From positions 1 to 63,610 of the forward strand of contig JACPRA010000039.1 of NCBI GenBank assembly GCA_016190215.1: a DNA stretch of 63,610 bases. The letters run 5' to 3'. The position numbers were made by a program, and so were the translations under genes. Shown here piece after piece: positions 1 through 61,819 of this stretch. The notes beneath the pieces are model-generated. The model saw only the letters and a program-made list of their open reading frames with translations, did not search any database and was not told where the DNA came from. The stretch's first letter is position 1. Every line of letters begins with the position of its first letter. The stretch comes from Candidatus Omnitrophota bacterium. GTDB lineage: Bacteria > Omnitrophota > Gorgyraeia > Aquiviventales > Aquiviventaceae.

Positions 1-24
1 GCAGGGGGCGAGGGGCAGGGGACA
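1..24. repeat. G-rich heptamer-array arm (gcagggg gcgaggg gcagggg aca), probably cut by the window edge; inverted partner at 397-430
   Basis: Approximate reverse complement of the C-rich array at 397-430; the two arms bracket the four-helix-bundle ORF. Confidence 0.6.
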
Positions 25-486
25 TTAGAGCTTTCTCCCCAATGTAATAAGCATGGCTCTCAACCGATTGATGCGCGTTGACGTTGTCTCGAGTTCTTGT
101 TCACCCATAAAACCCAACTCTTTAGTTAAGCACAATTGTGTTTCTAGCTCGGCTAGAGAACCAATGGCAATATAGGTGGACTGACGGTATTCCGCACGGT
201 GATTCTTAGAGTGGCCCTCAGCCATGTTCGACGGTACAGATATTGCCGCGCGTTTCATTTGACTTGCTAAAGCGTAACGTTCTTCTGTTGGCAGCTTTCC
301 ACACAGACGATAGACTTCTTTCGTTAGCTCAATAGCTTCTTGCCAAACTCGAAGGTCTCTAAAACTCGCGATGGGCCGCGTATTGTTCGTGGTGCTTTCC
401 CCTGCCCTTGTCTCATGCCCCTTGCCCCTTAAAGATTGCGGACCCGATCCGCACGATGTCCGCGCCCTCTTCCACCGCGACTTCAA
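25..486 (-). CDS. four-helix-bundle protein (23S rRNA intervening-sequence protein family); true start probably near 372
   Basis: Translation FRDLRVWQEA...SVPSNMAEGH...GSLAELETQL fits the four-helix-bundle (S23p-like) family. The body is visibly AT-richer than its neighbours. The ORF-track N-terminus (TTG at 486) overlaps yggS and looks artefactual. No ATG/GTG/TTG lies near the expected start; an in-frame ATC is at 370-372. Confidence 0.75.
   Translation of the reverse strand: MKSRWKRARTSCGSGPQSLRGKGHETRAGESTTNNTRPIASFRDLRVWQEAIELTKEVYRLCGKLPTEERYALASQMKRAAISVPSNMAEGHSKNHRAEYRQSTYIAIGSLAELETQLCLTKELGFMGEQELETTSTRINRLRAMLITLGRKL
397..430. repeat. C-rich heptamer-array arm (cccctgc ccttgtc tcatgcc ccttgcc cctt), inverted partner of 1-24
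   Basis: 7-nt periodicity read directly; overlaps the last codons and stop codon of yggS. Confidence 0.6.
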
Positions 487-1102
487 AATCGTGCGACATG
501 CCCATCGAGAGCTTCAGCTCCCCCGGCGCGCGCGACAGCGACGAGGCGACCGCATCGCGGAGCCGCCGCAACCCCTGAAAACAGGGCCGCGCCGCCTCCG
601 GCGACTCGGCCAAGGGCGCAATCGTCATCAGGCCGGTCAAGTCCAACTGCCGGCAGGCCGCCACGGCTTGGGCCAGGCGCAGCGCCTCTTCCGGAGCGCA
701 CCCGAACTTCGTCGCTTCCCCGGAAACGTTTACCTGCACGAACACGCTCAGCCATTTCCGGCGGGCGGCGGCGTCGCGCTCCAAAACGCCGATCAGCTCC
801 AGGGAATCCACGGAGTGCACCGCGTCAAACACCTCCACCGCCGGCTTGGACTTGTTGCGCTGCAAGTGGCCGATGAGATGCCACCGCGCGCCGGTCCCGG
901 AGAGGATGGCCTGCTTTTCGCGGGCCTCTTGGACGCGGTTTTCCCCCACGTCGGTCAGGCCGCAGCGGATCGCCTCAGCCATGCGGTCCGCGTCCACGCC
1001 TTTGGTCACGCCGATGAGGAGCACTGAGGCAGGGTCGCGGCCGCAGCGCCGGCAGGCATCGGCAAGACGGATGTGGATGTGACGTAAGCGGTCGGCGATC
1101 AC
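413..1102 (-). CDS. yggS: YggS-family pyridoxal-phosphate homeostasis protein
   Basis: MIADRLRHIHIRLADACRRCGRDP..VLLIGVTKG...HLIGHLQRNK...SMGMSHDFEVAVEEGADIVRIGSAIF is the typical YggS/alanine-racemase N-terminal fold pattern; GTG start. Confidence 0.9.
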   Translation of the reverse strand: MIADRLRHIHIRLADACRRCGRDPASVLLIGVTKGVDADRMAEAIRCGLTDVGENRVQEAREKQAILSGTGARWHLIGHLQRNKSKPAVEVFDAVHSVDSLELIGVLERDAAARRKWLSVFVQVNVSGEATKFGCAPEEALRLAQAVAACRQLDLTGLMTIAPLAESPEAARPCFQGLRRLRDAVASSLSRAPGELKLSMGMSHDFEVAVEEGADIVRIGSAIFKGQGA

Positions 1103-1109
1103 GCGGGGT

Positions 1110-1139
1110 ACTCTAGCACAGGCACGGAGGGAGCGTCAA
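1110..1139 (-). promoter_or_regulatory. candidate sigma70 promoter for yggS (TTGACG-18-TAGAGT)
   Basis: Minus strand reads ttgacg ctccctccgtgcctgtgc tagagt, ending 7 nt before the GTG start, so the leader would be very short or absent. Confidence 0.35.
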
Positions 1140-1142
1140 CGA

Positions 1143-1227
1143 AGCACACAGCAGACAGCACACAGCATATAGAATATGACTCCTCTATCGAGGTGTGGTG
1201 TGCTGTAACCTGTGTGCTGTCTGCTGC
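1143..1227. repeat. heptamer-arm hairpin (agcacac agcagac agcacac agca / tgtggtg tgctgta acctgtg tgctgtc tgctgc)
   Basis: A 17-nt perfect complement (ctgtgtgctgtctgctg) sits within longer imperfect arms. The AT-rich loop is about 26 nt. The element abuts the ftsA stop codon (1229-1231). Confidence 0.7.
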
Positions 1228-1228
1228 C

Positions 1229-20146: not shown

Positions 20147-20172
20147 CCTCTACTCCTTCGACAGGTCAACTG

Positions 20173-20257
20173 CGTCCATGGTCGACAGTCCACAGTCTAC
20201 GGTACCAATCGAAAATGATTGCTCGTACTGTGGACTGTGGTCTATGGACTGTGGACG
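20173..20257. repeat. heptamer-arm hairpin (gtcgaca gtccaca gtctacg / gtactgt ggactgt ggtctat ggactgt)
   Basis: Two 33-nt arms are imperfect reverse complements (about 24 of 33 positions by eye). The AT-rich loop is about 19 nt. Lies upstream of rbfA. Confidence 0.6.
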
Positions 20258-20273
20258 CCTTATCGCCAGAACG

Positions 20274-20296
20274 CCCCCCAACCTCCACCCTTCACC
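20274..20296. repeat. C-rich heptamer-like array (cccccca acctcca cccttca cc), direct partner of 21054-21082
   Basis: Shares c(c/t)acccttcacc with the 21054-21082 array in the same orientation; the two flank the nucleotidyltransferase gene. Confidence 0.45.
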
Positions 20297-21033: not shown

Positions 21034-21053
21034 ACGCTCACGCGTTGTTGTTG

Positions 21054-21082
21054 CCTTCACCCCTCACCCCCTACCCTTCACC
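21054..21082. repeat. C-rich heptamer array (ccttcac ccctcac cccctac ccttcac c)
   Basis: Four tandem 7-nt units read directly; fills the xerD-to-nucleotidyltransferase junction. Confidence 0.6.
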
Positions 21083-22038: not shown

Positions 22039-24656
<2,618 letters not shown>

Positions 24657-42988: not shown

Positions 42989-43060
42989 TTGTTCTTCTCC
43001 TGTGAATTCGGCCTGGCACTATCAGGAACGCCTCCGGTTTTTTCTGACCCCCCGTTTCCC

Positions 43061-43115
43061 CTGCATCATTGCAAGACCTGACCCCTATCTTCAGTGCAAG
43101 ACCTGACCCCTGTCT
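43061..43115. repeat. 30-nt repeat copy 3 plus 22-nt core copy 4 in tandem
   Basis: ctgcatcattgcaagacctgacccctatct tca gtgcaagacctgacccctgtct. Flanked by cgcctccggtttt motifs at 43029-43044 and 43126-43140; a third copy is at 41711-41725. Confidence 0.8.
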
Positions 43116-43147
43116 TACGGTTTTCCGCCTCCGGTTTTCCTGAATCC

Positions 43148-43450: not shown

Positions 43451-46400
43451 CACAACCTCCGCAGTACGGTGTTCTTGAAAAACTTCAGGACTGGATTTTC
43501 GATCCGATTGAACACACTATTTACCCTTGGATTCCTCAAGAACGCATATACGGTTCCCTTCGCATTAGCAGCAAAAGTACCTGATGCAGCGTCCCAGATG
43601 CCCTGTGGCAGATTCCTTCTAAGGAATTTTCTTGAGAGAAATTCCAGGCCATTCAACAGCCTGCCTCCAAGCGTTTGTTCCATGAGCTGCCCGACGCGGG
43701 CCCCTCGCGCTACCCCCAAAGCGCCTTCTCCCGAGTACAACACTGTCCGACTGCCAGCATTTAAGGACCCGGCGCCCCCAGCGGCAAGGCTGAGACCAAA
43801 CCCAGCCACTTTTCCCATCTTATAGAGTCCGCTCGATTTGTTCACATACTCGTTTAATCCCAACCGTCCACGAACCCAATCGGTCACTCCGAACGAGAAC
43901 ATATCACCCGTGCCCGCAAAGAAATCCGAAGCTCCTGAGATCAATGGCTCAGCCAGCACAGCAGGGTCGGCAGTTCGGAGCCGAGTTGCCAATTGTTGCA
44001 TTGCTTTGATGTTGAGAACTGCACCCGTACCCACCCCACCAACCTGCGCTGCCTGACCGAACTGTGCGAAGGTCACGCCTGGCAGGGATACCAAGGAACT
44101 GAATGGGGTGGACTCAATCGGACCGGGAGGAAGACTCGGCGAACCTCCTCCCCTTCCGCCGAAGAGCTTAAATCCGAGAAAGATAAGACCGCCGATGATC
44201 CCAATGGCTCCAAGGGCACCTAACCACGGAGCAGCAGCCCCCCACACATCCGATAACGCCGCGACCGCTCCACTGCCGAGACTGACTGGCTCAACCACTA
44301 ATCCTGAGGGATCCGTGAATCGCAGGGGATTATTGCGAACGTAGGCGAAGCGATTGAGGAATTGTGGATCGGCTGGGTTCTGGACGAGGGGGTCGGCGGA
44401 AAGGAAGCGGCCTAGGGATGGGTCGTAGTAGCGGGCTTGGTAGAAGTAGAGGCCGGTTTCAGGGTCGGCGAGCTGGCCGGTGAATTGGTGGGCGACGTCC
44501 ACCGGGCCGGTTTTTTGGCGGACCTCGCCGAAGGGGGCGTAGGCGTAGCGGGCTACGGCGGCGCCGGCGGCATCGGTGACGACGTTGGTGGAGCCCAGGT
44601 GATCCGGGTGGTAGAAGCGCGCGGGGCCACCGGAGGGCTTGGACGCCACCAACATGCCGCCGGCGAAGATGTGCTTCGTGGTGTCGGCCGCGCTGCGCTC
44701 GTACAGATCACCGACGTACGTCGTGCTGGAGGAGGCGGTGGCTTTCTTCACGCGCACGCCGTCGCCGTCGTAGGTCAAGCGGGTGGCGGTGTCTTTGGGC
44801 AGCGGCGGCGCCCACGCGGCTTGGCGGACGGCGTGCAGATAATAAGCGCCGGCCGGGTGGACCTCGGCGGTCTCGACCAGCGAACCGCTGGCTGGGTCGT
44901 ACTCGGCGAAGGCATCGTAATCTTCGCCCCGAACCAGCGGATCCAGCAACCAGCCAGCGGGCTGCGCCGTCAGGGCGCTGGAACCGATAAGGTGCGAGCC
45001 AGGCTCAAGGGAGAAGGCGGGTTTCCTGGTCGGGGTCTTGCCGGTCAGCGTGACTGTCAGGCCGGCGGGAGTGGCGCAGTAGACCTGGTAGCCGCGGCCG
45101 TATTCCAGCGTGGAGAAGTCGTCAAACTGCGGATCGCCGACGTGATCTTCGAGCCGATGGGTCTGCGGGTTGTAGCGGCTGATCTGTTGGATGTCGGCGC
45201 CGAAGGAGGGGAAGACGGCGCGGATGCTGAGGTCATCCGGGATGACCGGCAGGCTGAAGAAGTTCCAGCCGAACTGGAGCGCCACGCTCACCGTCTCCGT
45301 CGTCGGGGCGGCGACATGCACCATCCGGTTGTCGGCGTCCACGTCAAACCGGGTGGCTGACAGTTCGCGGGCGGCGGGGCTTTGCGCGGCGGAGAATTTG
45401 GCGGCCATGCTGCCATTGGCGTCGTACTCAAAGGCCCAGCCTTCGGAGGTGGCCGTCACAGCATGCGGCCGGCGGCCGTTGGGCTGGTCGTAGGAGAGCG
45501 TGGTAGAGCCTTTGACCGTGAGGTTGCCCAACGGATCGTACGCGAACGTCCAGGCTTGATCGGGTTCGTCGGCGCGGGCAAGCCGGTCCAGATCGTCGTA
45601 GGCAAAGGTCTCCACTTCTCCGGCTCGGACGTCCTCTACTCGAGTGAGGTTGCCCACGGCATCATACGCGTACGCAATATCCTGCAGGACGGCCGAGGAC
45701 GCACCGCGGGTGGTCAAATGCGTGGCGCGCAGGGTGCGCGGGTCATAGGCATAGCTGGTGGTGGTGCCGTTGCCCAGCGTCAGCACTGTCGGTTGATCGG
45801 CCGCGTTGTACTCGATGCCCTGGACGTAGCTGGTCGCATCGGACGCCACCGTCTCCACCCCGCCTTGCGCATTGTAGGTATACGCCACCCGCTCACCGTC
45901 GGGATACGTCAGGCTCGTCAGCCGGTCCAATAGATCGAAATTGGCCTCAAACACGTTAGAGGCGCCTTCGATGGTGTGCGTTTCTTTGATCGTCCGGCCC
46001 AGGTTGTCATATTCGAAATGCGCCGAGCTCACCGGGTCTTGGCGGCCCGTCAGGCGGCCAATGGAGAAGGACCCGGCCGAGCCATCATAGGTATAGGTGA
46101 TGGGGCCGGCGTCGGGAATGCCGGAGCCGGCCGGGATCGCAAACTCCACGCGCGTGGGCCGATCCAGCGGGTCGTAGTTGACGCCTTGCTCTACACCCCG
46201 GGCGTCCGTCTGCCGGATAAGGTTGTCCACCGCGTCATACGCCGACGTCCAGCGGCCCATATCCGGATCGTCGAGCTCAGTCCGCCGGCTGAGCGAATCG
46301 TAGGCGGCGCGCGTGACGTTGCCGCGGGCGTCGGTCACCTGAGTCAGGTTGTCGAGCGGGTCGTACTGGTAGGCGGTGCGGAAGATCTGCGAGCCGGCGA

Positions 46401-49400
46401 ACTCCTCCATCTGAGCGAGCCGTCCCTGCGCATCGGCGGTGGAGCGGGAGCGGTGGCCGTTGGCATCGGTGCTCGTGACGGTCCAGTCGTCGTAGGCCGT
46501 GGCCCACGTGGAGCCGTCCGGCTCAACCGTTTCCACAGGACGGCCCACCGCGTCGTACGTGTACGAGACCGCCGCGATGCTCGCGGCCGACGGCTCCTGG
46601 CTCATGGGCACATAGGACGAGGAGAGCGCGGAGCGATACGGAAGCCACTGTTTGGTCACGAGACCACGGTCGTCAAGCTCGGCCGCCCCGGTCACGATTT
46701 GTTGGGCAGGGTCTTCCGCGGGAGCGCGCGTCTGGACGGCGCGGCCCACACCGTCGAAAAAGGTGTAGCTTGTGAGCAACTTCGATTCGCCGCTGCGCTC
46801 CCGGACCTGTGTCGTCACCCGCGAGGGCACTGTGGACACCTCATACGCGAAGGCCATCGTGGGCAACGCCGCGGAGTCATTCGGGCCGATGAGCGCGCTG
46901 GGGCGCCCAAACACATCGTAGCGGGCCTGGGTCGTCACCCCGTTCGGATCAGTGGAGCGGGTCACCAGGCCGAACCGGGCGTCCCGCTCCATCTGCTGGA
47001 CATGGCCGGCGGCATTGGTGAGGCGCACGAGGAAGGCGTGAGACTCGTCATCGTAGCCAAGGGTAGTGGTTCGGGCGAGCGGATCGGTGAGGCGGGTGAC
47101 GTTGCCGTACTGATCGTACGCCAGATGGGTCGTCAGATACTCGTTGGTGGCGTTGAGCCATTCTGACACGGCGGTCAGGTTGCCTGTCGTCGGCGGATCG
47201 GTCAGGGCGGGATGATTGTCGTAGAAGAACCGCTGTTCCTTGAGGCGCGTGGTGCCATCCGGCCCGGCCACGGTAATCACGGCAGGCCGGTTGACGATCC
47301 ATGCCGATGGGTTGAGGGCGTAGCCGACGCGCGTGGTGCGCTCATCCCCGCTCACGCTCGTGTCGCCTTCTTCCGTGATCCGCGTCACGTTGCCGAAATC
47401 GTCGTACTCCAGCGACACGGCTGTCTCTTTCGACGACGCGTTCCCATCTAAGATGGTCTGCGCTTGGCGCTCCAACCGGCAGAAGCTGACCCCGGGGTCA
47501 GGGTCCGTGCATCGCCATGCGCTGGCCTGCTCCGCATAGCGGGCCCCCGACACATCGGTGACGGTGGAGCGCTCGAGGCGGCCTTTCAGGCGGTCATCCT
47601 GATGGAACCGCAACTCCGTGGTGGTGCCCGCGGCGTCGCGCGCCTGCACCACGGCGAACCCACGGAATTCTTTCGTCGCCGGATCGTACCGGCCGCCCTC
47701 GTAGCTGTAGCGCGTCGTCACCTGATGGTCGAGGCCGTCGTCCAGCGTCACGGCATCCACCACCGGCACCACAAAGGGTAAATCCGGCAGCGCATCGTCG
47801 CCGGTGTTGTCCAGGAGCCCGGAGGGGCGGTAGGTGAACGCGGCACTGCCCCCGATCCCATTCATTTGGCGGCTCAGCAGGTCCACGATCGCGCCGGTGG
47901 ATTGCGCCAGCTCGCCGGCGCCGGTGATCGGATCGAACACCCCTGGGTCGGCCAGCCCGTCGCCGTTGAAGTCGCCCACCTGGACCTGGTCGTTGGCGTC
48001 GCGCATGCTGAAGGTGGCAGCTACCGTCCGGGGGCTTCCAAATCCCGCGCCGGTGGCGGGAGCGTAGATCACCTGGCCCGCCGCCCGATTGTAGTACGCG
48101 ACGTCGCTGAGCCCGTCGCCGTTGAAGTCGGCGACAAGATGCTCTTGCCCTGCCCCGAACCCCTCCAGCCAGTTGGCCGATTCGACGAACTGCGATCCGT
48201 TGGAGAGGGCAACGCTGATCTGGCCGGAAGAGCGGTTGGCGAGGCCGATATCCGTCAGCCCATCGCCGTTGAAGTCGCCGGTCAGCGGTTCATGATTCCC
48301 CGAGCCCCAAGTGAGGGCAAAGGAACTCGCCGGCGAAAACACGCTCCCGCTGCTGAGCGCGACGGACCATGCGCCCACATTGTAGGTAGCCAGGTCGGAT
48401 GCGCCGTCGCCGTTGAAATCGCCGACGAACGGAGTGCCGCCGCCGAACGATAGGGCCGGCAGCGCGTCCGGCTGAAAACTCGAGCCGGTGGACCGCGCGA
48501 ACCGCCAGCTCCCGGCCTGATACGTCGCCACGTCGGTTCGGCCGTCGCCGTCCCAATCCCCCAGCACCGGGGCGGTCTGGACGGTGCCGAATCCGGAGAG
48601 CCAGGCGCTTCCCACCTCGAACAATCCGGCCCGGGATGCGGACACCGCCCACGTGCCGCTGGGCTGATCGAAGAAGGCTAGATCGCTGAGCCCATCGCCG
48701 TTGAAATCGCCGGAGAGCGACGGTTGGAGGAACTGCACCGGGTTCATAATGTCCACTTGGCCGGCGGGAGAACCGCTGAGCTGCCAGCCGAAGCCGCTGT
48801 TCTGGTTATAGGAGGTAATTTCAACGAGGTTCCATCCGGCGTTGAGCGACAAGGATTTGGCGGGCCAGCCAGGAATCTCTTGGAGCGTGCCGTTCAGGAA
48901 GACGCGGATCTGGGAATCCTCGGACGTGCTGAACGTGAGCGACGCCGTCTTGGGGCTTGCGACGAACAGATAGGTCCAGAAGTACAGATTCATGTCCCGA
49001 TCAGCGCCGACGGACAGGTTGCCTTGGCCGTTGATATTCCACGTGAGGCCGGGCGCGCTGCCGGAGGGCTGCGTGAACGTCGGAGAGGTTTCGGACCAGC
49101 TCACAATCTGGCTGGGATACAGGGGGGCGCCGTTTTCATCCCCCCAGTCCTTGCTCGCAAACCGCACGTTCCACAAGTTCGAGCCGCGCAACCCCGTATT
49201 CGAGGAGACGATATAGGTGGGTTGCGCGTCCGACTGGTAGGTGAAGGTGGTGGGCGGCAAGGCGGACACGCCGTCCGTTCCCACCTGCGTGACCGATGCC
49301 AGCAGGCTGCGTCCGGTGCGGGGGCTGAGCTGATAGGCCAGTTGATACCGGCGCACGAGCTGATCGGCAGCGGTCACGACGATCTCCTTCAACCGTTTCG

Positions 49401-50181
49401 CGGTCGTGATCCGCGCGCCGCTGCGGGCCGAAGTCTCCGCGTCGGGACGCTCTTCAAGGATGAACTCGACGGCGTTCGACGGAGCCAGCCCGCTCGGCTC
49501 ATGCCCCGCGTAGTCAATCCGTGAGAGATACGATTGCCCGCGGTCCTGCGCGTAGCCGACAGTCAGCGTGTTGCCGTTCGGGGTCATCACCGTTCGCAAG
49601 ACCCACCGGAACACGCCAGCAGGAGCGGCTTGCTCGGTCTCCGGAGTCCCGCCGAAGAGATAGCGCGTGCCGGAGGGATCCCGCGCCTCCCAGCCGTCGG
49701 CGCCCTTCTGCTCCACGCGAAAGAACGCGCCCTCATCCTTCGCCCGGTAGGTGCCGTCCGGAATCCGCGCCAGCTCCAGGCTGATCCCGTGGAGATTCAG
49801 CAAGAACGTGTCGGTGCCGTCGTACCGCGGCACGCCGTTTTTGGTGGAACGCTCGATCGCGCCGACTTCCATATTCCATCCGACCCCCACCCACCCGTTC
49901 CGGCTTGAGGACGCATAGGTCAGGGCGAGGGCAGGCTGCAGGCCGCGCCGGCCCGGCGGGAGGAGAATGGGCACCGACGTGGTCGCGCGCCCGGTGAACC
50001 GATCCGCCTGAAACCCCTCAATCAGCGTGGCGGCAGGCGGCGGCGCGGATCCCGCCGATTCGATGGTCGAGCCCAGGTGAGCCGCTTCAACATGAGGCGG
50101 AAATGCCGCTTGAGCGATGACCAGCGCGAGCGCCGTGACCGCCGCAATTGTTCGTCGGAAAAGAGCGGCTGGAGAATCCAT
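43450..50181 (-). CDS. RHS/YD-repeat polymorphic toxin with Tc-toxin B-C-fusion-like architecture
   Basis: Signal peptide. SpvB-type N-terminus (FTGRATTSVPILLPPGRRGLQPALALTYASS..GWGVGW-like). About seven FG-GAP/VCBS repeats (GDFNGDGLSD). Many YD repeats (YDxxGN). RHS core YYDPSLGRFLSADP...NPLRFTDPSGL. Then a 282-aa AT-richer C-terminal module. Confidence 0.9.
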   Translation of the reverse strand: MDSPAALFRRTIAAVTALALVIAQAAFPPHVEAAHLGSTIESAGSAPPPAATLIEGFQADRFTGRATTSVPILLPPGRRGLQPALALTYASSSRNGWVGVGWNMEVGAIERSTKNGVPRYDGTDTFLLNLHGISLELARIPDGTYRAKDEGAFFRVEQKGADGWEARDPSGTRYLFGGTPETEQAAPAGVFRWVLRTVMTPNGNTLTVGYAQDRGQSYLSRIDYAGHEPSGLAPSNAVEFILEERPDAETSARSGARITTAKRLKEIVVTAADQLVRRYQLAYQLSPRTGRSLLASVTQVGTDGVSALPPTTFTYQSDAQPTYIVSSNTGLRGSNLWNVRFASKDWGDENGAPLYPSQIVSWSETSPTFTQPSGSAPGLTWNINGQGNLSVGADRDMNLYFWTYLFVASPKTASLTFSTSEDSQIRVFLNGTLQEIPGWPAKSLSLNAGWNLVEITSYNQNSGFGWQLSGSPAGQVDIMNPVQFLQPSLSGDFNGDGLSDLAFFDQPSGTWAVSASRAGLFEVGSAWLSGFGTVQTAPVLGDWDGDGRTDVATYQAGSWRFARSTGSSFQPDALPALSFGGGTPFVGDFNGDGASDLATYNVGAWSVALSSGSVFSPASSFALTWGSGNHEPLTGDFNGDGLTDIGLANRSSGQISVALSNGSQFVESANWLEGFGAGQEHLVADFNGDGLSDVAYYNRAAGQVIYAPATGAGFGSPRTVAATFSMRDANDQVQVGDFNGDGLADPGVFDPITGAGELAQSTGAIVDLLSRQMNGIGGSAAFTYRPSGLLDNTGDDALPDLPFVVPVVDAVTLDDGLDHQVTTRYSYEGGRYDPATKEFRGFAVVQARDAAGTTTELRFHQDDRLKGRLERSTVTDVSGARYAEQASAWRCTDPDPGVSFCRLERQAQTILDGNASSKETAVSLEYDDFGNVTRITEEGDTSVSGDERTTRVGYALNPSAWIVNRPAVITVAGPDGTTRLKEQRFFYDNHPALTDPPTTGNLTAVSEWLNATNEYLTTHLAYDQYGNVTRLTDPLARTTTLGYDDESHAFLVRLTNAAGHVQQMERDARFGLVTRSTDPNGVTTQARYDVFGRPSALIGPNDSAALPTMAFAYEVSTVPSRVTTQVRERSGESKLLTSYTFFDGVGRAVQTRAPAEDPAQQIVTGAAELDDRGLVTKQWLPYRSALSSSYVPMSQEPSAASIAAVSYTYDAVGRPVETVEPDGSTWATAYDDWTVTSTDANGHRSRSTADAQGRLAQMEEFAGSQIFRTAYQYDPLDNLTQVTDARGNVTRAAYDSLSRRTELDDPDMGRWTSAYDAVDNLIRQTDARGVEQGVNYDPLDRPTRVEFAIPAGSGIPDAGPITYTYDGSAGSFSIGRLTGRQDPVSSAHFEYDNLGRTIKETHTIEGASNVFEANFDLLDRLTSLTYPDGERVAYTYNAQGGVETVASDATSYVQGIEYNAADQPTVLTLGNGTTTSYAYDPRTLRATHLTTRGASSAVLQDIAYAYDAVGNLTRVEDVRAGEVETFAYDDLDRLARADEPDQAWTFAYDPLGNLTVKGSTTLSYDQPNGRRPHAVTATSEGWAFEYDANGSMAAKFSAAQSPAARELSATRFDVDADNRMVHVAAPTTETVSVALQFGWNFFSLPVIPDDLSIRAVFPSFGADIQQISRYNPQTHRLEDHVGDPQFDDFSTLEYGRGYQVYCATPAGLTVTLTGKTPTRKPAFSLEPGSHLIGSSALTAQPAGWLLDPLVRGEDYDAFAEYDPASGSLVETAEVHPAGAYYLHAVRQAAWAPPLPKDTATRLTYDGDGVRVKKATASSSTTYVGDLYERSAADTTKHIFAGGMLVASKPSGGPARFYHPDHLGSTNVVTDAAGAAVARYAYAPFGEVRQKTGPVDVAHQFTGQLADPETGLYFYQARYYDPSLGRFLSADPLVQNPADPQFLNRFAYVRNNPLRFTDPSGLVVEPVSLGSGAVAALSDVWGAAAPWLGALGAIGIIGGLIFLGFKLFGGRGGGSPSLPPGPIESTPFSSLVSLPGVTFAQFGQAAQVGGVGTGAVLNIKAMQQLATRLRTADPAVLAEPLISGASDFFAGTGDMFSFGVTDWVRGRLGLNEYVNKSSGLYKMGKVAGFGLSLAAGGAGSLNAGSRTVLYSGEGALGVARGARVGQLMEQTLGGRLLNGLEFLSRKFLRRNLPQGIWDAASGTFAANAKGTVYAFLRNPRVNSVFNRIENPVLKFFKNTVLRRL

Positions 50182-53072
50182 CAAGGCGCCTGGGGCGGAA
50201 CCGCCGGCCGCGCCACGTAGACATCCACCGGCTTCGAGGCTTGCCCGCCGAAGCCGTCCCGCACCCGAATCTCAAACCGTCGGCGTCCGAGGATGTCGGA
50301 CGGCGGCGTCCAGGCATGCGCAGCCTGCGGTGTCCAGTCCGCCAGCACTTGACCGTCCAACAGTATTTGGTACATCAGCGGGTCACCCTCGCGGTCGAGG
50401 GCCGTCACCGTGATCGTCGTCGGGATCTCTATGTGGACTTTGGGACCATCCGTCAGCTCGACCGCGGCAATCTCCGGCACCGTGCCGCGCACGACAGTGT
50501 AGGTGCGTACGGTCTGAAAGCCTCGAGGGCTGACGGCGGTGACCGTGATGGTGTTGGGACCCTCCGCCAGCGGCACGGTTCCTTCAAATTTCCGCCCGGC
50601 GCGGCTCGCCGGTTGGCCGTTGATGTCCACCCGGGTCAGGCTGTCATCCACGGTCCCCGTGAACACCAGCGGGGTGAGGTTGGTTTTTGCCGGCGGAGCG
50701 GCCTCCATCACCGGAGGAAGCTGGTCCAGGATGACATTGGCCGTCGCCGACGTGCTGACCACGCCTGAACGGCTCTTCGCGACGATCGCGAAGAGGTTGT
50801 CCCCTTCCGTCAGCCCGACGACCGCCGTCCACGTCGTGGCATCGCCGGCCGGAACCACCTCGACCCCATTGATCCAAATGGAGGTGCCGGGGGTTTTCGT
50901 GCCGGACAACGCGGCGGAATCGGCATCCGTCACGATCAATGATTGTCCGACAGTGGGACGCGGCGGTGGTGCGGTATCCAGGGTGACGGAGATCGCGTGC
51001 GAGGCCTGGTTGCCGGCCGGATCCACCGCTGTCGCCGTGATCGCGTTGGCCCCTTCGGTCAGCGTCATTACCGCAGAGAACGTTCCAAGCGTGACCGGCG
51101 CGGGGATATCATTCACGCGCACGGTGGCTTGCGGGTCATCCACGGTGCCCAACACCGTCAGCGAACTCGTGCCGGAGGGAATCATCGGAGCCTCGGTGGG
51201 ATAGCCAGCCCACAGCGTCAGGATGCCGTTGGTGACCGCCCCCGCCGTCAACGATCCGACGCTCACGACGCTGCGCACGCCTCCGGCCTCCGCCACGCCG
51301 CCACCCACACTGGCCAGGACGTATTGGACCATGGTGAAGACGTTGTTTGACAATAGCGCGATGGGAAACGGCCCGTGGGGCTGTGATGTTTTTGGCGTCG
51401 CGGGCCTGGACCAAAAATAGTTCAACGCGCTGCCGGGCCCCAGCACGGCACCGTCTGTCGGCTGGGTGATCTGAATGCGTGGAGGTGTCGTGTCCGGAGC
51501 CCCGGGCACCGTCAATGGCAGCGTGACGGACGCGCTCCGATGGGTCGGGTCGGACACGATGAACGTCACCGCATGGCTGCCGCCCTGATCCGCGCCCGGG
51601 ACCCAGCGGAAGAACCGTCGCTCGGGATCGAACGCGGCCCCCGTCGGCAGACCGGTTGCACTGTAGGTCAGCGGCTCGTCGTCTTCGTCCTTCCCCTGCA
51701 CATAGAAGACCACAATCTTATTCGGTGCGAGATTACTGGGCGGCCACCGGAGGCCGAAGTCCGTCACCAGGACACTGAAATCCACGGCGCTGATGCGGCT
51801 GTCGCCGTCGAGATCAGCGCGGGGATCATACCGGGCGTCGCCGACGCTCGTCCCGAACGCCGTCACCAGGACGGAATAGTCCACGATATCCACGCCGCCA
51901 TCGCCGTTGATATCGGGGCTGAGAATCCGCAGGGTGGGCGGGTGCGGCTCCGGCGCGATGACCGTGATCGCCAGGGTCTGTGGAAGCGAGGCGAGGTCGC
52001 CGTCGTTGGCCACGGCCGTGAGGGTGTAGGTACCCGCCTGCGTCCGGGCGGGTTGCCAGAAGAAACAAAACCGGTTCGAACCAGGACCGCGATACCCGGC
52101 CACCAGGCGCAGGATATGGATGGAGTCCACACTACTCAGTTGGCCGTCTTGATCCACATCGGCTGCCGCTCGCTGCGCTGGGGTGAGTTGCTGGAGGCCC
52201 ACGACCTGTCGCAGCACGAACAGCGCATCTACACTCTCCACCTGCCCGTTGCGATTCACATCCCCCATCGGATATACCTGCGCGCCGGCCGGCAAGGGCG
52301 TCACCTGCAGGCTGACCCGGTGATCGTCCGGATCGGTGGCGGTCATCAGGACGCTCAGGGACTCCTCGGTCCGAATGGTCCGCGCCTCGAGGGGTCCGAG
52401 AATAGGAGCGCGGTTCCTCGGAGCGATGTCTGGAGCGGGTGTCCCGCTGGACGATGTATCGTTGGAAGAACCCTCGGAGGGAAGAGGCGTTGGGCTCAAC
52501 ACCGGTTGGGTTGCAGGCTTGAAGACGAGAGATGGCGCGGAGGACAGCGTCACCGGGGCAGCAGGTTTTCCTCGTATTCCCCGCGAGGAGGCCATGGGGG
52601 AGGACTGAGGAGTGACCGGCACAGCCTCTGGAACCGGTTTCAATGCGATATGGCGCTGGAGCTGATCTGTCCACGGCGACATCCACGTCGTGGTGGTCGC
52701 TGACTGATAGCCTGACGCGGTGGCTGACACGGTCACCCGCTGCCAACCGTGCGGGTGGGGCATGGTTGTCGTGTAGGCGCCCTCTATTGCCCGCACAGTT
52801 TGGGTCACCTTCGCCCGGGGAAGAGTGATCGTGACGCGAGCCTGCGGCAGGGGCTGCCGCGTAGCGGCATTGATGAGCCGTCCCTGGATCGTGACGGTCG
52901 GGCTGGCTGCGTTCCCGGATTCGGTCGCTTTCGCCTGAACGTCGACAGCACCGGCAAAACCCACGCATACCCCGAGCACGAAACGGCTGACCGCCAGCGG
53001 GCTACAGCCACAATGCTGACGCGGCGGTCGCGTTGAAGAAGAAGCGTAGCGGTCGTATGGCTTGGACATCAT
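50181..53072 (-). CDS. large secreted protein with CarboxypepD_reg-like, cadherin/Ig-like and dockerin-type repeats
   Basis: Signal peptide (..FVLGVCVGFAGAVDVQA). Two pairs of dockerin-like Ca-binding repeats (DVNRNGQVESVDALFVLRQV, DVDQDGQLSSVDSIHILRLV, DINGDGGVDIVDYSVLV, DLDGDSRISAVDFSVLV). Several Ig-like modules (TLTEGANAITATAVD..). Its TGA overlaps the RHS ATG. Confidence 0.7.
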   Translation of the reverse strand: MMSKPYDRYASSSTRPPRQHCGCSPLAVSRFVLGVCVGFAGAVDVQAKATESGNAASPTVTIQGRLINAATRQPLPQARVTITLPRAKVTQTVRAIEGAYTTTMPHPHGWQRVTVSATASGYQSATTTTWMSPWTDQLQRHIALKPVPEAVPVTPQSSPMASSRGIRGKPAAPVTLSSAPSLVFKPATQPVLSPTPLPSEGSSNDTSSSGTPAPDIAPRNRAPILGPLEARTIRTEESLSVLMTATDPDDHRVSLQVTPLPAGAQVYPMGDVNRNGQVESVDALFVLRQVVGLQQLTPAQRAAADVDQDGQLSSVDSIHILRLVAGYRGPGSNRFCFFWQPARTQAGTYTLTAVANDGDLASLPQTLAITVIAPEPHPPTLRILSPDINGDGGVDIVDYSVLVTAFGTSVGDARYDPRADLDGDSRISAVDFSVLVTDFGLRWPPSNLAPNKIVVFYVQGKDEDDEPLTYSATGLPTGAAFDPERRFFRWVPGADQGGSHAVTFIVSDPTHRSASVTLPLTVPGAPDTTPPRIQITQPTDGAVLGPGSALNYFWSRPATPKTSQPHGPFPIALLSNNVFTMVQYVLASVGGGVAEAGGVRSVVSVGSLTAGAVTNGILTLWAGYPTEAPMIPSGTSSLTVLGTVDDPQATVRVNDIPAPVTLGTFSAVMTLTEGANAITATAVDPAGNQASHAISVTLDTAPPPRPTVGQSLIVTDADSAALSGTKTPGTSIWINGVEVVPAGDATTWTAVVGLTEGDNLFAIVAKSRSGVVSTSATANVILDQLPPVMEAAPPAKTNLTPLVFTGTVDDSLTRVDINGQPASRAGRKFEGTVPLAEGPNTITVTAVSPRGFQTVRTYTVVRGTVPEIAAVELTDGPKVHIEIPTTITVTALDREGDPLMYQILLDGQVLADWTPQAAHAWTPPSDILGRRRFEIRVRDGFGGQASKPVDVYVARPAVPPQAP

Positions 53073-58664: not shown

Positions 58665-59629
58665 TCGCGCGCTCCTTCCCGCCAGGCCAGCACGGTGGGG
58701 CGCATCCCTTCCGCGCCTCGGCGCACCACCGCCTCCACGCGGGCTCGGGCCGGCACCGGCCCCTCCACCAGGCCTTCGGCCACCACGAGGAATGTCTTGG
58801 ATGTGACTCCGAACTTCGCCCGGACGTTCTGAAACTCCGAGTCGCCTGGGTCAAACGGCGCCGGCACGCTGGGATCGTCGGTGGCCACGTCCGGCGCGAG
58901 ACGAAGGAAGTAATGCCCGCGTCCGCGAAACGACATCACCGCCTCGATGAGCGCCGGGCTCAGGCCCACGGCTCGCAGCGCCTCCCGCCCGGCGGTATTG
59001 ATATTGACCAAACTACCGGGCTCCAGCCATGGGCTGGCCGCCTGCTGCAACGCCTGGAACATCTCGTCCGTCATCCCCGGAATCTCGCGAAGTTCTTCTG
59101 GCGCGGCAAATGGAGCATCCTTCGGGACATAGGGCGGACCAACGGACGCGGTTTCCGTAGCGTCGGGCGGGTCGCGATAGTCGAGGATGGCCGCCGCCAG
59201 CGCCTCCGGCACGCCCAACCGCGCCAACGTCTCAGGTTCGGCAGTATTGAGATTGATCTTCCGCTCCTCATCGCTCATGCGCACCGTGAGCGTGCTAGCC
59301 ATGGAGCCTGTCCCTGCTGGAAGTTGCACGACCCGCTGGGCGGGATTATCCGGCGCAGCTTCGGGCGGCGCCGCCCAGTCGTCGCCCAACCAGTCCACGG
59401 CGTCGGCCGCGGGCCGGCCGGGAGTCGCGTCGTCCATCAAGCGTTGCAGCGCCACCGTAATGCCGCTGCGTGCCAGCAGGCTGGCCTGGGCCTGGCTCAG
59501 GCGGTATTTCGTCAGCCGCACATCCACCGATAGATATCGCGCGATCGTCACCGCCAACACCGAGAGCACCACCACCAGCCACAATGTGATGAGAAGCAGC
59601 GAGCCGGAGCGCGCACCGAATCGGATCAT
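58661..59629 (-). CDS. gspK: GspK-like minor pseudopilin
   Basis: SGSLLLITLWLVVVLSVLA N-terminus; two helix-hairpin-helix-like motifs INLNTAEPETLARL and VNINTAGREALRAVG. Confidence 0.7.
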   Translation of the reverse strand: MIRFGARSGSLLLITLWLVVVLSVLAVTIARYLSVDVRLTKYRLSQAQASLLARSGITVALQRLMDDATPGRPAADAVDWLGDDWAAPPEAAPDNPAQRVVQLPAGTGSMASTLTVRMSDEERKINLNTAEPETLARLGVPEALAAAILDYRDPPDATETASVGPPYVPKDAPFAAPEELREIPGMTDEMFQALQQAASPWLEPGSLVNINTAGREALRAVGLSPALIEAVMSFRGRGHYFLRLAPDVATDDPSVPAPFDPGDSEFQNVRAKFGVTSKTFLVVAEGLVEGPVPARARVEAVVRRGAEGMRPTVLAWREGARE

Positions 59630-60321
59630 TCCGGAGAGCCGCCGGCGGCGTCCCGCGGGGGCAAAATGCCCGAGGGAATCGCGCACACCCGTCGGAGCGG
59701 CGGTCCGTTGGAGCGCTGGAGGACGACCTCCACCAGGCGCGGCAGCTCAGGCAGGCGATTCCATTGATCGCTCCATGCCGACGGCCCGCCGGCCTCCGGC
59801 GTCGCGACGGCGTAGCGGAACGCGGCGCGCTCGCAGCCCGGCAGCAGCAGACGCGCCAGCGGTTCCTGGCCGGCCCGGGCCTCTGTCGGCGATTGGCTCA
59901 GCCTCCAGAATCCCAACACGCCGTCGCGGGATTCACACACATAGCGCACCCATTCCACCCGCGCGGGGCTGCGGCCGGCGGACATCCAGGTCCGCCACTG
60001 GGCGGCCTCTGAGCCAAATCGGATCGCCGCGCCGCTGACCGAATCCTCCGGCGCCGGAACCTGCTCATCGCGGATGGCGCAGGACAGATCACGTTCCAGC
60101 CGATCGAGCGCGACCCATTGGCGCTGCCGATCTTCAGAGGTTTCCGACACCCGACGCCAGACCATGATCCCGCCCTGCAGATGGCTGAAGAACCCCACCA
60201 TCAGAATGGACGTCATCGTCGAGGCGACCATCAACTCCACCAAGGTAAATCCCAGAGCCGCTCGAGGCTCGAGGCTCGAGGCTCGAGGCAAAAGCGGATT
60301 TATCGACGGCGATTGCTGCAT
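59626..60321 (-). CDS. GspJ-like minor pseudopilin with a 24-aa leader
   Basis: Prepilin motif LG/FTLVELMVA after the leader MQQSPSINPLLPRASSLEPRAAL; position between the I-like and K-like genes. Confidence 0.6.
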   Translation of the reverse strand: MQQSPSINPLLPRASSLEPRAALGFTLVELMVASTMTSILMVGFFSHLQGGIMVWRRVSETSEDRQRQWVALDRLERDLSCAIRDEQVPAPEDSVSGAAIRFGSEAAQWRTWMSAGRSPARVEWVRYVCESRDGVLGFWRLSQSPTEARAGQEPLARLLLPGCERAAFRYAVATPEAGGPSAWSDQWNRLPELPRLVEVVLQRSNGPPLRRVCAIPSGILPPRDAAGGSPE

Positions 60322-60353
60322 GTCCCTTGAGCCTCGAGCCTTCAGCCTTGAGC
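60260..60353. repeat. heptamer-arm hairpin: (gctcgag)x4 / (ccttgag cctcgag ccttcag ccttgag)
   Basis: Complementary 7-nt arrays about 30 nt long. The 34-nt AT-richer loop holds the gspJ-like ATG (60319-60321). One arm is coding (PRASSLEPRAA). Confidence 0.8.
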
Positions 60354-60377
60354 TAAGACGTGTTTTCCCGCAACCTG

Positions 60378-60833
60378 TTAAAACCATTCCGGCGGCACCC
60401 AGTCGGTGGGATAGACGGCGGAGAGCGTCAGGGGAGCCGAAGAAGCTCCCTCCTGGCGCACCGTCAGCTCCAGCTCGCTCAACGGCACGCTGGTTCCCCG
60501 CGCAGGCAGCGCCTGCGCGCGAAGCGTCCAGCGCACCGCCTGGTTGGGCGCGGGAAACAGCACGTCGCGAATATCCCGAGGCAAACCGCGCGGGTCTGCG
60601 ACGAGACGGGCGTCAAGTTCCCGCCACTGCTCCTGGGCCAAGGCCAGCAGCCGGTCGCGCTCGTCCATCACCCGGATGGCGCGGAGTTGGCTGGACAGCC
60701 CCCGGCTGACGAACACGACCCCCACCGCCAGGACGACGGCTGAGAGGACAGCCTCAAGAAGGAGAAACCCGCTCCGTCTCTCCCTGCGAGACGGGCCGGC
60801 CTGTTGTGACGCGCGTTTCACCGGTTGTGTCAT
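60378..60833 (-). CDS. GspI-like minor pseudopilin
   Basis: SG/FLLLEAVLSAVVLAVG prepilin-type N-terminus; about 150 aa; overlaps the 3' end of the H-like gene, so the start is uncertain. Confidence 0.55.
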   Translation of the reverse strand: MTQPVKRASQQAGPSRRERRSGFLLLEAVLSAVVLAVGVVFVSRGLSSQLRAIRVMDERDRLLALAQEQWRELDARLVADPRGLPRDIRDVLFPAPNQAVRWTLRAQALPARGTSVPLSELELTVRQEGASSAPLTLSAVYPTDWVPPEWF

Positions 60834-61290
60834 CCACCGTAATCGTGTAGGCGAGGCCCTCCGCTTGGAGTATCAGCGTCGTGGCCTCGCTGGTCCCATC
60901 TGGAAACATCTGCAGGCAATCGCATGCCGCCCGCACCCCCTGCCTGGTGACCTGTACCGAGAGATTCTTCGAAAGCGGAGGGCCGTCCCGTCCCAGCTCA
61001 GCGTCGGAGCCCTGCGCTGCCGATTCGATCCGGGTCTGATGAGTGTTGGCATCCCACCGCCACGTCAGCGGGCGGGATTGCAGCACCGCCTGCGCCCGAG
61101 CGAGGCGAAGGCTTTGCGCCATCGTATACGCCGCCTGCTCGACCCGAAGGCGATGCGCCGTCTGCTGCAATCTCGGGACCGCCCCCGTCACCAGGATCGC
61201 CAGCGTGGCGGACACCAAGACCACCTCAATGAGCGTAAATCCTTGGAGGGGCACGGGGCGAGGGGCATGGGGCACAGGACTCAACCGCAT
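60754..61290 (-). CDS. GspH-like minor pseudopilin with a 17-aa leader
   Basis: MRLSPVPHAPRPVPLQG/FTLIEVVLV. Start taken at ATG 61290 in the hairpin loop. Confidence 0.6.
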   Translation of the reverse strand: MRLSPVPHAPRPVPLQGFTLIEVVLVSATLAILVTGAVPRLQQTAHRLRVEQAAYTMAQSLRLARAQAVLQSRPLTWRWDANTHQTRIESAAQGSDAELGRDGPPLSKNLSVQVTRQGVRAACDCLQMFPDGTSEATTLILQAEGLAYTITVDDTTGETRVTTGRPVSQGETERVSPS

Positions 61291-61330
61291 GATTCTGTTG
61301 TTTTCACCCTGCCCCCTGTCTCCTGCCCCA
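61245..61330. repeat. heptamer-arm hairpin: (aggggca cggggcg aggggca tggggca) / (ccctgcc ccctgtc tcctgcc cca)
   Basis: A G4-tract array faces a C-rich array. The 26-nt loop holds the gspH-like ATG. The G-rich arm is the antisense of the leader-peptide codons. Confidence 0.8.
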
Positions 61331-61333
61331 TAT

Positions 61334-61765
61334 TCATTGCCAGTTTGCAACGTCGTCGCGTCCCGGCTGGCCGTCCGGACCCAATGACGAGAGATCGTAA
61401 TCCTGACCGTGCTGTGATTCGCGTTGATACAGATACGGCCGCCCCCACGGGTCGTTCGGCAGCCCGCGCTTCAGATAGGGGCCGCGCCACCTGCCCCGAG
61501 TCTCTTCATCCAGCTCCGAGGGCGCATCCCGGGCGATCAACGGATCCAGCCTCGACGGATAGGCGCCGGTGTCCAATTCATACAAGTCTAACGCCAGCCC
61601 GATGGCCGCAAGATCGGAGGCGGCGCGGGCCGTCTTCGCCTGCTCGGTGCGGCCGGCCATCCGCGGCACCACCATGGCGGCCAACACGCCGATGATGACC
61701 ACCACCAGCATCAACTCCACCAGCGTGAATCCCTTGAGGGGCAAGGGGCATGGGGCAAGGGGCAT
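61334..61765 (-). CDS. gspG: major pseudopilin GspG
   Basis: MPLAPCPLPLKG/FTLVELMLVVVIIGVLAAMVVP....A.......DL..I..AL..Y..D.G.YP, then PNDPWG.PY.Y. An alternative upstream ATG at 61843 overlaps the gspF stop. Confidence 0.85.
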   Translation of the reverse strand: MPLAPCPLPLKGFTLVELMLVVVIIGVLAAMVVPRMAGRTEQAKTARAASDLAAIGLALDLYELDTGAYPSRLDPLIARDAPSELDEETRGRWRGPYLKRGLPNDPWGRPYLYQRESQHGQDYDLSSLGPDGQPGRDDVANWQ

Positions 61766-61819
61766 GGGACGACCCCGTGTATCCCAAGAGATTCTGCTTG
61801 GTTCACACCCCTGCCCCAT
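61736..61819. repeat. heptamer-arm hairpin: (aggggca aggggca tggggca aggggca tggg) / (cacacccctgccccat)
   Basis: Long G4-tract array with a shorter C-rich partner. The array covers the gspG start codon and leader codons. Confidence 0.7.

Follow-up and report, generated by a model that had tools for sequence, protein, structure and literature searches.

The 63,610-nucleotide (nt) contig JACPRA010000039.1 of a Candidatus Omnitrophota bacterium (assembly GCA_016190215.1, positions 1 to 63,610; hereafter the window) carries inverted pairs of tandem 7-nt repeats at junctions between co-directional genes, and one of these pairs encloses a four-helix-bundle gene of the S23p (23S_rRNA_IVP) family. 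These loci are probably selfish cassettes of the intervening sequence (IVS) type known from 23S rRNA, together with derivatives lacking an open reading frame (ORF), residing in the junctions of protein-coding operons. The IVS-like anatomy of the gene-bearing copy is well supported, as its gene family, complementary termini, and stem heptamers match those of the Coxiella burnetii IVS. In addition, the gene and the arrays are associated across the bacteria, orthologous junctions exist with and without the arrays, the cassette occupies two different junctions in relatives, and the gene has a foreign base composition. These data suggest that what is new here is an IVS architecture outside rRNA, uniting heptamer repeats with the S23p family.

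In the gene-bearing copy (locus A; like the other hairpins and the solo arrays of the window, on the minus strand), the 5' arm (397..430; mRNA sense AAGGGGCAAGGGGCATGAGACAAGGGCAGGGG; period 7 in Tandem Repeats Finder [TRF]) is followed by the four-helix-bundle gene with a short leader (25..396; Pfam and PDB matches) and by a C-rich 3' arm (1..24; CCCCTGCCCCTCGCCCCCTGC) that ends at the window edge; in relatives, proC comes next. The two arms pair with each other, and a mini-hairpin made of the arms only, with the 3' arm cut by the window edge, folds at -36 kcal/mol. Three-frame translation showed that the last codons and the stop of yggS (..AIFKGQGA and stop, i.e., a KGQGA tail) are encoded in the 5' arm. 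An earlier note, made from the letters of this DNA and its ORFs, had described one copy as having a whole four-helix-bundle gene for its loop, and the gene indeed matches PF05635 (E value, 1.3e-34) and the crystal structure of Xanthomonas XCC0516 (PDB 2GSC; E value, 5e-35). It also matches the bAvd family PF22296 (E value, 2.6e-4), under the curated cut-off. The conserved part of the gene spans 25-372, with a TAA stop at 25-27, and an AGC stands where relatives have ATG. The canonical start is therefore lost, and the gene caller gave the gene only as a 66-amino-acid ORF; it may be either a recent pseudogene or a gene with a non-standard start. Its GC content is 0.47 and its third-position GC content (GC3) is 0.43, compared with a GC3 of 0.85 for yggS. 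The GC3 of the locus A gene is also far below that of the copies at the same junction in relatives (0.55-0.64), which hints at a recent replacement by a foreign allele. Across the two sets of PF05635-type loci described below, the gene has a lower GC content than its flanks in 150 of 160 cases.

Intervening sequences of 23S rRNA were reportedly treated by Ralph and McClelland in 1993. In Coxiella burnetii, the IVS in helix 45 of 23S rRNA consists of an S23p ORF within a 28-bp stem of terminal inverted repeats, with GACAGAT heptamers (two to three in tandem, depending on the strain) directly preceding the ORF; the RNase III cut falls where the first of these repeats begins, and the X. campestris S23p protein is cited as a homopentameric toroid (Warrier et al. 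2016, PMC4990558). Locus A shares with such IVSs a PF05635 gene in the loop, complementary termini that form a long stem around the ORF (about 28 bp in Coxiella), and, as in Coxiella, heptamers in tandem on the upstream side of the ORF, within the 5' stem arm (TRF array 405-430). The ORFs of IVSs are often decaying, as is the locus A gene with its lost start codon, and ORF-less forms of IVSs exist, as do short hairpins in the window. The likeness to IVSs proposed in the earlier note thus holds for gene, termini, and heptamers, and the pairing of gene and arrays recurs across many phyla. In contrast to IVSs of 23S rRNA helices 9, 25, and 45, the window elements occupy mRNA operon junctions (e.g., yggS/proC and gspF/gspG), their arms are partly translated as the ends of host proteins, and several heptamer families coexist within the one genome. 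Cleavage by RNase III has been demonstrated in Coxiella; the predicted window stems of 21-35 bp are compatible with excision by this enzyme.

The association of the gene with heptamer arrays was characterized in two sets of loci. Set 1 comprised 80 loci of four-helix-bundle (PF05635) relatives in species-representative genomes, gathered with a query that contained no repeats, from Proteobacteria, Acidobacteriota, Planctomycetota, Gemmatimonadota, Chloroflexota, Bacteroidota, Clostridia, Cyanobacteria, candidate phyla, and ANME archaea. Strict detection within 200 nt of the gene found a period-7 array upstream of 41 and downstream of 41 of the 80 genes, and on both sides of 30, while every other period from 4 to 12 was found in at most 6. 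Of the flank windows, 81 of 151 (54%) contained a period-7 array, compared with 18 of 493 control windows (p 1e-42). Under relaxed detection, at least one arm was present at 71 of the 80 genes and both arms at 43. Set 2 (80 loci; GC, 28-69%), which was seeded with the crystallised Xanthomonas XCC0516, gave a similar picture, with 75 of 156 flank windows (48%) against 34 of 524 controls (p 4.5e-30); periods 5, 6, and 9 were unenriched, and period 8 was found in 7/156 versus 2/524 (p 0.0007).

The arms on the two sides of the gene are reverse complements of each other (56 inverted versus 12 direct pairs), with a heptamer that varies by locus and a median length of 4.3-4.7 units. Their polarity relative to the gene is nearly fixed, as G exceeds C in 40 of 43 upstream arms and C exceeds G in 39 of 43 downstream arms. 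Among 77 cassettes, the closer two proteins are, the more alike are their heptamers (Spearman -0.19; permutation p<0.0005). In the loci fetched by pattern, each four-helix-bundle gene lies inside an inverted heptamer pair between co-directional operon genes, for example, at gspE/gspF in Dokdonella and at carA/carB in Ramlibacter. The XCC0516 ortholog of Xanthomonas vasicola and its Pseudoxanthomonas counterpart occupy the accB/accC junction, with GGGAATC-type arrays on their flanks. For four-helix-bundle loci without arrays, the predicted duplexes are long pairings and are uninterpretable. Stop codons occur in 39 of 77 5' arms, with 28.8 expected; this enrichment is modest, and the idea that the 5' arms provide frame-independent stops was not retained. 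In a Thermoanaerobaculia hairpin (L039, 3190-3370), outer GAGGCTN arms enclose inner GAGAGAY arms of another family, and these nested arms suggest that hairpins may grow by nesting or by block addition. In the literature, with incomplete coverage, we found no paper that connects PF05635/S23p with heptamer arrays other than in Coxiella, an absence that is not proof.

Heptamer arrays themselves have been described. In Xanthomonas, GGGAATC arrays with a preferred number of four units lie between co-directional ORFs, in 70-75 convergent pairs per genome and no more than 50 bp from stops and starts; the arrays are transcribed, and the genes associated with them include xpsF (gspF) (Rehm et al. 2015, PMC4692102). 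The same study reported no link to mobile elements and left the S23p gene unmentioned (PMC4692102). The window elements resemble these repeats in their 7-nt units, about four units per array, and convergent pairing between co-directional ORFs, and it is these GGGAATC repeats that flank the XCC0516 ortholog. The Xanthomonas repeats differ in having a single consensus, whereas five or more unrelated heptamers occur in the window, and several of these lack G-tracts. As heptamer pairs are known in Xanthomonas and arrays in Nostoc, the earlier note went too far in treating the elements as an undescribed family.

Rehm et al. proposed GGGAATC (Xanthomonas) and GGGGAYT (Nostoc) as G-quadruplex motifs, and in vitro measurements showed that such oligonucleotides form G-quadruplexes (PMC4692102). 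By extension, the window arrays could be repeats that form G-quadruplexes in either DNA or RNA, with the hairpin as a competing structure. The GGGGCAN x4 arrays (A, G, and H) and the GGTGARG arrays are rich in G-tracts, the four or so units per arm correspond to the four tracts needed, and the fixed polarity with the G-rich arm upstream fits a strand-specific role. However, judged by sequence, a G-tract unit that could form a G-quadruplex is present in GGGGCAN and absent from CAGCASA, GTCCACA, and GCTCGAG, i.e., from the arms of hairpins B, C, E, and F, which have the same architecture. Many cassette arms elsewhere are likewise not G-tract repeats (e.g., CAGTTTT, GGTATCA, and CAGTCGC), and the feature common to all is the inverted pairing of the arms. 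We therefore regard a G-quadruplex origin of the elements as highly doubtful.

Within the window, TRF detected period-7 arrays near ftsA and yggS (region 1: 405-430, 1143-1167, and 1198-1226), around ligA and rbfA (region 2: 20227-20256, 21057-21082, 22525-22558, and 22564-22597), and in the type II secretion system (T2SS) operon (region 3: 60260-60289, 60325-60353, 61247-61274, and 61737-61768), with arms of three to five tandem units. Lag autocorrelation (pass mark, 17 of 21 self-matches) identified seven segments with period 7, compared with 0.07 expected under a second-order Markov model (i.e., an excess of about 100-fold), and zero to one segment for each of the other periods from 4 to 12. 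The tandem arrays named in the earlier note were all recovered by TRF. Hairpins B, F, C, and E outrank all other inverted repeats of the window in length. When mRNA-sense RNA was folded against 200 dinucleotide shuffles, six loci beat the controls (z scores of -2.05 to -6.9): -4.9 for 1135-1235 (B), -6.9 for 20165-20265 (C), -3.1 for 22515-22605 (E), -3.3 for 60250-60360 (F), -2.05 for 61240-61335 (G), and -2.2 for 61730-61825 (H). The loops have a GC content of 0.37-0.60, compared with 0.666 for the whole window, and are AT-richer as had been claimed.

No terminator-like site was found in 1-2500, 19500-23000, and 59500-62500, and no U-tract follows any copy, so that the intrinsic terminator reading, which calls for a GC-rich stem with a U-tract, was rejected, as the earlier note had held. 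The same applies to CRISPR arrays, which have 24-48-nt direct repeats with unique spacers whereas the units here are 7 nt long and contiguous, and to repetitive extragenic palindromes and bacterial interspersed mosaic elements (REP/BIME), in which the same imperfect palindrome of about 35 nt recurs genome-wide whereas the arms here are internally periodic and differ by locus. An Rfam scan of the window returned a tRNA as its sole match, with no family at any hairpin and no rRNA.

In hairpin B (1143..1227; ftsA/yggS junction), CAGCASA and TGTGCTG arms of three to four units enclose a loop with a GC content of 0.43, and the predicted fold has an energy of -43.8 kcal/mol. Hairpin C (20172..20258; upstream of rbfA) has GTCCACA and TGTGGAC arms of four units and a loop with a GC content of 0.37; its arm type recurs with a different loop at a non-orthologous site of a relative (L217, 1-52). 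Hairpin E (22525..22599), between ligA and the downstream ORF, consists of CACAGCA and TGCTGTS arms of five units around a loop of 7-10 nt. All three open with TAAGGC: in hairpin B, its first bases are the ftsA stop TAA; in hairpin E, TAAGGCG begins with the ligA stop; and hairpin C is preceded by TAAGGCG. The statement that the arm sequence differs in every copy was overstated, given that CAGCASA is common to B and E, and GGGGCAN, including an odd GAGACA unit, to A, G, and H.

Two further arrays lie on one strand, are G-rich and of one type, and flank the PolyA_pol-head gene: GGTGAAG GGTGGAG GTTGGGG downstream of it (20274..20296; z score, +0.3; no partner arm) and GGTGAAG GGTAGGG GGTGAGG GGTGAAG between it and the xerC-like gene (21054..21082; z score, +1.2; also detected by TRF). 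Because they are on the same strand and do not fold, we classified them as solo arrays rather than as a hairpin. Of the eight or more loci of one hairpin design listed in the earlier note, six fold as hairpins, and these two do not.

In a metagenome bin rich in GC, such structures could in principle be due to chance or to faulty assembly, and one Logan contig (L015) breaks inside hairpin C, where its first 53 bases are unaligned. Hairpin C is, however, reproduced base for base, with no difference in unit number, by two independent contigs from other runs (L014 and L016); the period-7 excess is about 100-fold over expectation; and the same architecture is found in finished and isolate genomes, e.g., Xanthomonas vasicola and Adhaeretor mobilis. 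Chance or an artefact is almost certainly not the explanation. Outside its first 53 bases, L015 matches the window at 100%, with the match beginning inside the 5' arm, and its divergence is probably a fold-back or repeat-induced mis-join; the break therefore indicates that such hairpins disrupt short-read assemblies.

The remaining three hairpins are in the T2SS operon, and their 3' arms encode prepilin leaders. In hairpin F (60260..60353; gspI/gspJ junction), a 5' arm of GGCTCRA x4 pairs with a 3' arm of GCCTCGA x4 that lies inside the GspJ leader (MQQSPSINPLLPRASSLEPRAALG, followed by FTLVE; ATG at 60321); its heptamer type is also found in L217 (15968-16046). The 5' arm of hairpin G (61245..61330; gspG/gspH junction; GGGGCAG GAGACAG GGGGCAG) begins 4 nt past the gspG stop, and its GAGACA unit is shared with the arms of the four-helix-bundle cassettes. 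The 3' arm of hairpin G (GCCCCNN x4) encodes the GspH leader (MRLSPVPHAPRPVPLQG, followed by FTLIE), with an ATG at 61290 in the loop and an in-frame GTG in the last unit. Hairpin H (61736..61819; gspF/gspG junction) has a short 5' arm (GGGGCAGGGG) and a 3' arm of (ATGCCCC TTGCCCC)x2, which encodes the GspG leader (MPLAPCPLPLKG, followed by FTLVE; ATG at 61765-61763) and contains an in-frame TTG that would give MPLKG. The elements had been described as sitting exactly at gene junctions. They do sit at junctions, but the boundaries are less exact, as F, G, and H have their 3' arms in leader coding sequence, the yggS tail is in the 5' arm of locus A, and the ftsA and ligA stops are in B and E.

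Ordinary leaders of at most 9 residues were found in 37 of 117 GspG homologs and longer ones in 80, and 38 of these 80 had a 7-residue periodicity, compared with 4-7 at neighbouring lags; a 7-residue period is three heptamers read in three frames. As the 7-nt unit shifts the frame by one, the arrays could be contingency (phase-variation) loci, in which gain or loss of a unit in a prepilin leader switches the expression of a pseudopilin. The position of arrays inside the called GspG, GspH, and GspJ leaders, the hypervariable leaders of orthologs, and the strain-dependent unit number in Coxiella would agree with such a role. Most copies are nevertheless outside coding sequence, housekeeping junctions (ftsA/yggS, ligA, and rbfA) would be odd sites for a switch, and the two metagenome contigs across hairpin C have the same unit number. 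Moreover, the ATGCCCC/TTGCCCC array has starts in all three frames and would buffer frame shifts rather than exploit them, and phase variation is highly improbable as an explanation.

Relatives of the window genome show the elements at the same junction, at another junction, and absent. A cassette of the window subfamily is at yggS/proC in L220, L221, and L223 and at wzy/glycosyltransferase in L222. The four cassettes have one irregular 5' arm (GGGGCAA GGGGCRT GAGACAR GGGGC), and the locus A arm type with its GAGACA unit is also found in L220, L222, and L223. The called N-termini of proC in L220 (4372-) and L223 (4375-) (MTLGPCPLPP.. and MNRTPRPVPH..) are read from the 3' arm of the cassette.

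Three other relatives (L217, L218, and L219) have the same secretion operon in the same gene order. Period-7 arrays around it are absent from 20 kb in L219, number three in L218 (all solo arrays at T2SS junctions), and form pairs at about nine junctions in L217, where the heptamer types GGCTCAA and GTCCACA are also those of the window and AATCCGC is also found in a Pirellulaceae genome. At gspF/gspG, the gspF stop (CAATGA) and the start of mature GspG (GGATTYAC) are common to the window and all three relatives. In the empty form of L219, in which the gspF stop and the gspG start overlap in ATGA, these two motifs are 19 nt apart; the forms with arrays, including hairpin H, have 37 to about 140 nt between them. 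This presence and absence at orthologous junctions, with filled and empty forms, is the polymorphism that the earlier note had named as a test, and it rules out ordinary conserved junction sequence. A GspF-based scan of GTDB genomes returned only homologs of at most 38% identity, with no arrays, and was uninformative.

Several further features of these relatives were observed. The CAATCCG array at gspF/gspG of L217 (10068-10135) is broken by a 29-nt perfect-stem palindrome (CCTGCCTGCGCCGAGGCTTCGGCAGGCAGG), which looks like a second small element nested in the heptamer array. At L217 10520-10640, an entire hairpin with both arms and nearly no loop is within the called GspH leader (MILRIANCGLRIVNPKSQIRNPQCRVG, followed by FTLVE). 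Downstream of the T2SS operon, smc of L217 (20530 onward; 1760 amino acids) contains an intein with LAGLIDADG, which is missing from smc of L218 and L219 (about 1200 amino acids).

A rather unlikely but more serious alternative is that the elements are host-serving intercistronic regulators that grew in place, with heptamers arising by slippage and the partner arm by quasi-palindrome template switching. They would then be kept for mRNA stability or translational coupling, as are REP/BIME, and the four-helix-bundle gene would be a secondary passenger that prefers hairpin loops. In A, B, E, and G, 0-4 nt separate the upstream stop from the 5' arm, and downstream starts fall within the loop or the 3' arm, a geometry that suits coupling. 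A TCAGAGG array is at the same site in L217 and L218, and would therefore have been inherited in place and then elaborated. Loops differ among copies with the same arm heptamer, solo arrays are common, and the unit number varies among Coxiella strains. On the other hand, slippage in place leaves unexplained the strong enrichment of period 7 alone across phyla, the irregular GAGACA arm around the same gene subfamily at different junctions, and the heptamer similarity that tracks protein similarity. A regulatory function for the host would have to accommodate L219, which has the same operon without arrays and thus indicates that the hairpins are dispensable, as well as a sense strand without a G-U signature. 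In-place growth, G-quadruplexes, and phase variation each cover part of the data, and none of them explains the enrichment of period 7 only together with the linkage of gene and arms.

For the IVS-type cassette reading, the most likely course of events can be outlined. RNase III processing, the mechanism of transposition, and any host benefit are parts of this outline that we infer. The full form (locus A) would be a G-rich array of about four to five heptamers, the S23p gene, and a C-rich reverse-complement array; the short hairpins (B, C, and E-H) would be ORF-less relatives with the same kind of arms, and the solo arrays decayed or half elements. Insertion would occur right after the stop codon of a gene within a co-directional operon, and the element would be co-transcribed as part of the operon mRNA. 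It may be tolerated because reading of its arms can provide a C-terminal tail, a fresh stop or start codon, or a prepilin leader that the host can spare. In the transcript, the arms are predicted to form a stem with about 21-35 bp of double strand. If the Coxiella S23p IVS is a guide, this stem should be cut by RNase III, parting the flanking cistrons and freeing the insert; an uncut stem would hide the downstream start region and tie downstream translation to the upstream cistron. Arrays would change unit number and sequence fast, and gene and arms would move together between sites and genomes.

A number of observations weigh against this reading. Inspection of the hairpin flanks by eye, where no formal scan was made, revealed no target-site duplication, and neither a transposase nor another mobility signature was found. 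Hairpins sharing arm heptamers have unrelated loops, so that copy-and-paste of whole elements would be conjecture for the ORF-less forms, and local alignments gave no significant homology between ORF-less hairpin loops and the cassette interior. Hairpins G and H fold weakly (z score of about -2), and if RNase III cut F, G, and H within their 3' arms, the cuts would hit or adjoin leader coding sequence, which is awkward for a harmless element. The purine polarity of B, C, and E is opposite to that of the cassettes. The sense strand has no G-U wobble signature, and antisense RNA folds better in five of six window hairpins and in 27 of 43 cassettes (G-U test, not significant). Finally, the control windows used for the enrichment were mostly coding sequence. 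With other junctions in the same loci as the reference, of which roughly 15% or less carry arrays by an estimate based on 27 arrays in 186 kb, the enrichment falls from 13-fold to about 3-5-fold.

The choice of coding control windows has no bearing on the inverse-complement relation between the two flanks, and the missing G-U signature fits a DNA-level or strand-neutral constraint as well as it fits RNA function. A telomere-like healing of breaks, considered for the polarity with the G-rich strand outward, was set aside, given that B, C, and E, which are on the same strand, show the opposite polarity. As for the loops, the earlier note had seen by eye a shared A/C-rich segment, which found no support in local alignments against shuffles (p 0.4-0.8 for locus A versus the short hairpins); loops G and H alone were similar to each other (p about 0.02), and loop G aligned with the 3' interior of the cassette (CGGTTGAG; p 0.0065, uncorrected for about 12 tests).

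Other known repeat systems share only part of the anatomy. Tandem heptanucleotide repeats (short tandemly repeated repetitive sequences [STRR]) were reportedly found in cyanobacteria by Mazel and colleagues in 1990. TAACTGA heptamer repeats are known from Beggiatoaceae, with one inverted pair in BOGUAY (MacGregor 2015, PMC4679880). Both types are, like the window arrays, tandem, intergenic heptamers that often end a few nt before a start codon, occur in several phyla, and are suspected of horizontal spread; unlike these, they form mostly direct arrays, with inverted pairs rare and no cargo gene reported. Integron attC sites also keep their structure while the sequence varies by copy, whereas the window elements have no nearby integrase and no R/L box structure. 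MITEs, to which the earlier note had also likened the loci, are similarly short, hairpin-forming insertions at gene junctions with presence/absence polymorphism. That comparison is loosely supported: the inverted arms and the variable occupancy of junctions agree with it, whereas the window elements have no nearby transposase and no target duplication visible by eye, their arms are internally periodic, and their loops are not conserved even between copies with the same arms. The accessory protein bAvd of diversity-generating retroelements is distantly homologous to the cargo protein, and Avd forms a pentameric four-helix-bundle assembly, like the S23p pentamer; the window differs from such retroelements in having no reverse transcriptase, template repeat, or variable repeat.

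A bolder extension of the cassette reading, which we offer as a conjecture that is possible rather than probable, is that the S23p pentamer recognises its own heptamer arms with about one subunit per 7-nt unit, a ratio proposed because the arms have about four to five units. Gene and arms would then constitute an unrecognised, pan-bacterial class of mobile cassettes without a transposase or reverse transcriptase of their own, colonising rRNA helices and operon junctions, leaving ORF-less hairpins behind, and rewriting the termini of host proteins, prepilin leaders among them.

IVSs that fragment 23S rRNA, the unexplained excess of heptamer repeats in bacteria, and the S23p family of unassigned function (with two orphan crystal structures) have been the subjects of three separate literatures, and our analysis suggests that they are one element. 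If so, the nature of IVSs and the origin of heptamer repeats would become testable in culturable bacteria, for which the accB/XCC0516/accC locus of Xanthomonas is a ready case. Selfish hairpin cassettes would also be routine inside essential operons, where they may split polycistronic mRNAs and contribute stops, starts, and leader peptides, which is relevant to operon expression in uncultured phyla. For gene calling, many of the long GspG leaders and the proC N-termini are array read-through, in which callers extend host proteins into the arrays.

The window has a GC content of 66.6%, and nearly all of its genes are on the minus strand. Its nearest named homologs are from 'Candidatus Omnitrophica' (75-77% identity for GspG and 63-67% for the four-helix-bundle protein), and near-identical short contigs are present in three public sequencing runs. 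By Pfam matches, region 1 contains ftsA (1229-2398), yggS (413-1102), and then the four-helix-bundle gene (25-396). Region 2 contains ligA (22602-24650), an unknown ORF, an xerC-like recombinase gene (21088-22038), a PolyA_pol-head nucleotidyltransferase gene (20320-21033), rbfA (19790-20146), truB, ribF, and mraZ. The T2SS operon of region 3 contains gspE, gspF (61840-63057), gspG (61334-61765), gspH (60754-61290), gspI (60378-60833), and gspJ (59626-60321), followed by gspK, L, and M.

In both the window and L220, yggS comes right after ftsA without an intervening ftsZ; the order in L220 is ddl-ftsQ-ftsA-yggS-4HB-proC-yggT-ileS, where 4HB is the four-helix-bundle gene, and in L223 a peptidase S15 gene lies between ftsA and yggS. 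Directly 3' of hairpin B and just upstream of the GTG start of yggS, a sigma-70-like promoter match (1110-1139, minus strand; TTGACG, 18 nt, TAGAGT, with TG) is one of two in 2.5 kb, compared with 0.2 expected. An inverted repeat without heptamer periodicity (28620-28640 and 28795-28815; 21 nt, 95% complementary) has 154 nt between its arms. The lowest-GC kilobase of the window (43001-44000; GC content, 0.51) has a strong negative GC skew and contains a 25-nt unit repeated twice with a 92% match (43066-43116), just upstream of a 2244-amino-acid ORF (43450-50184).

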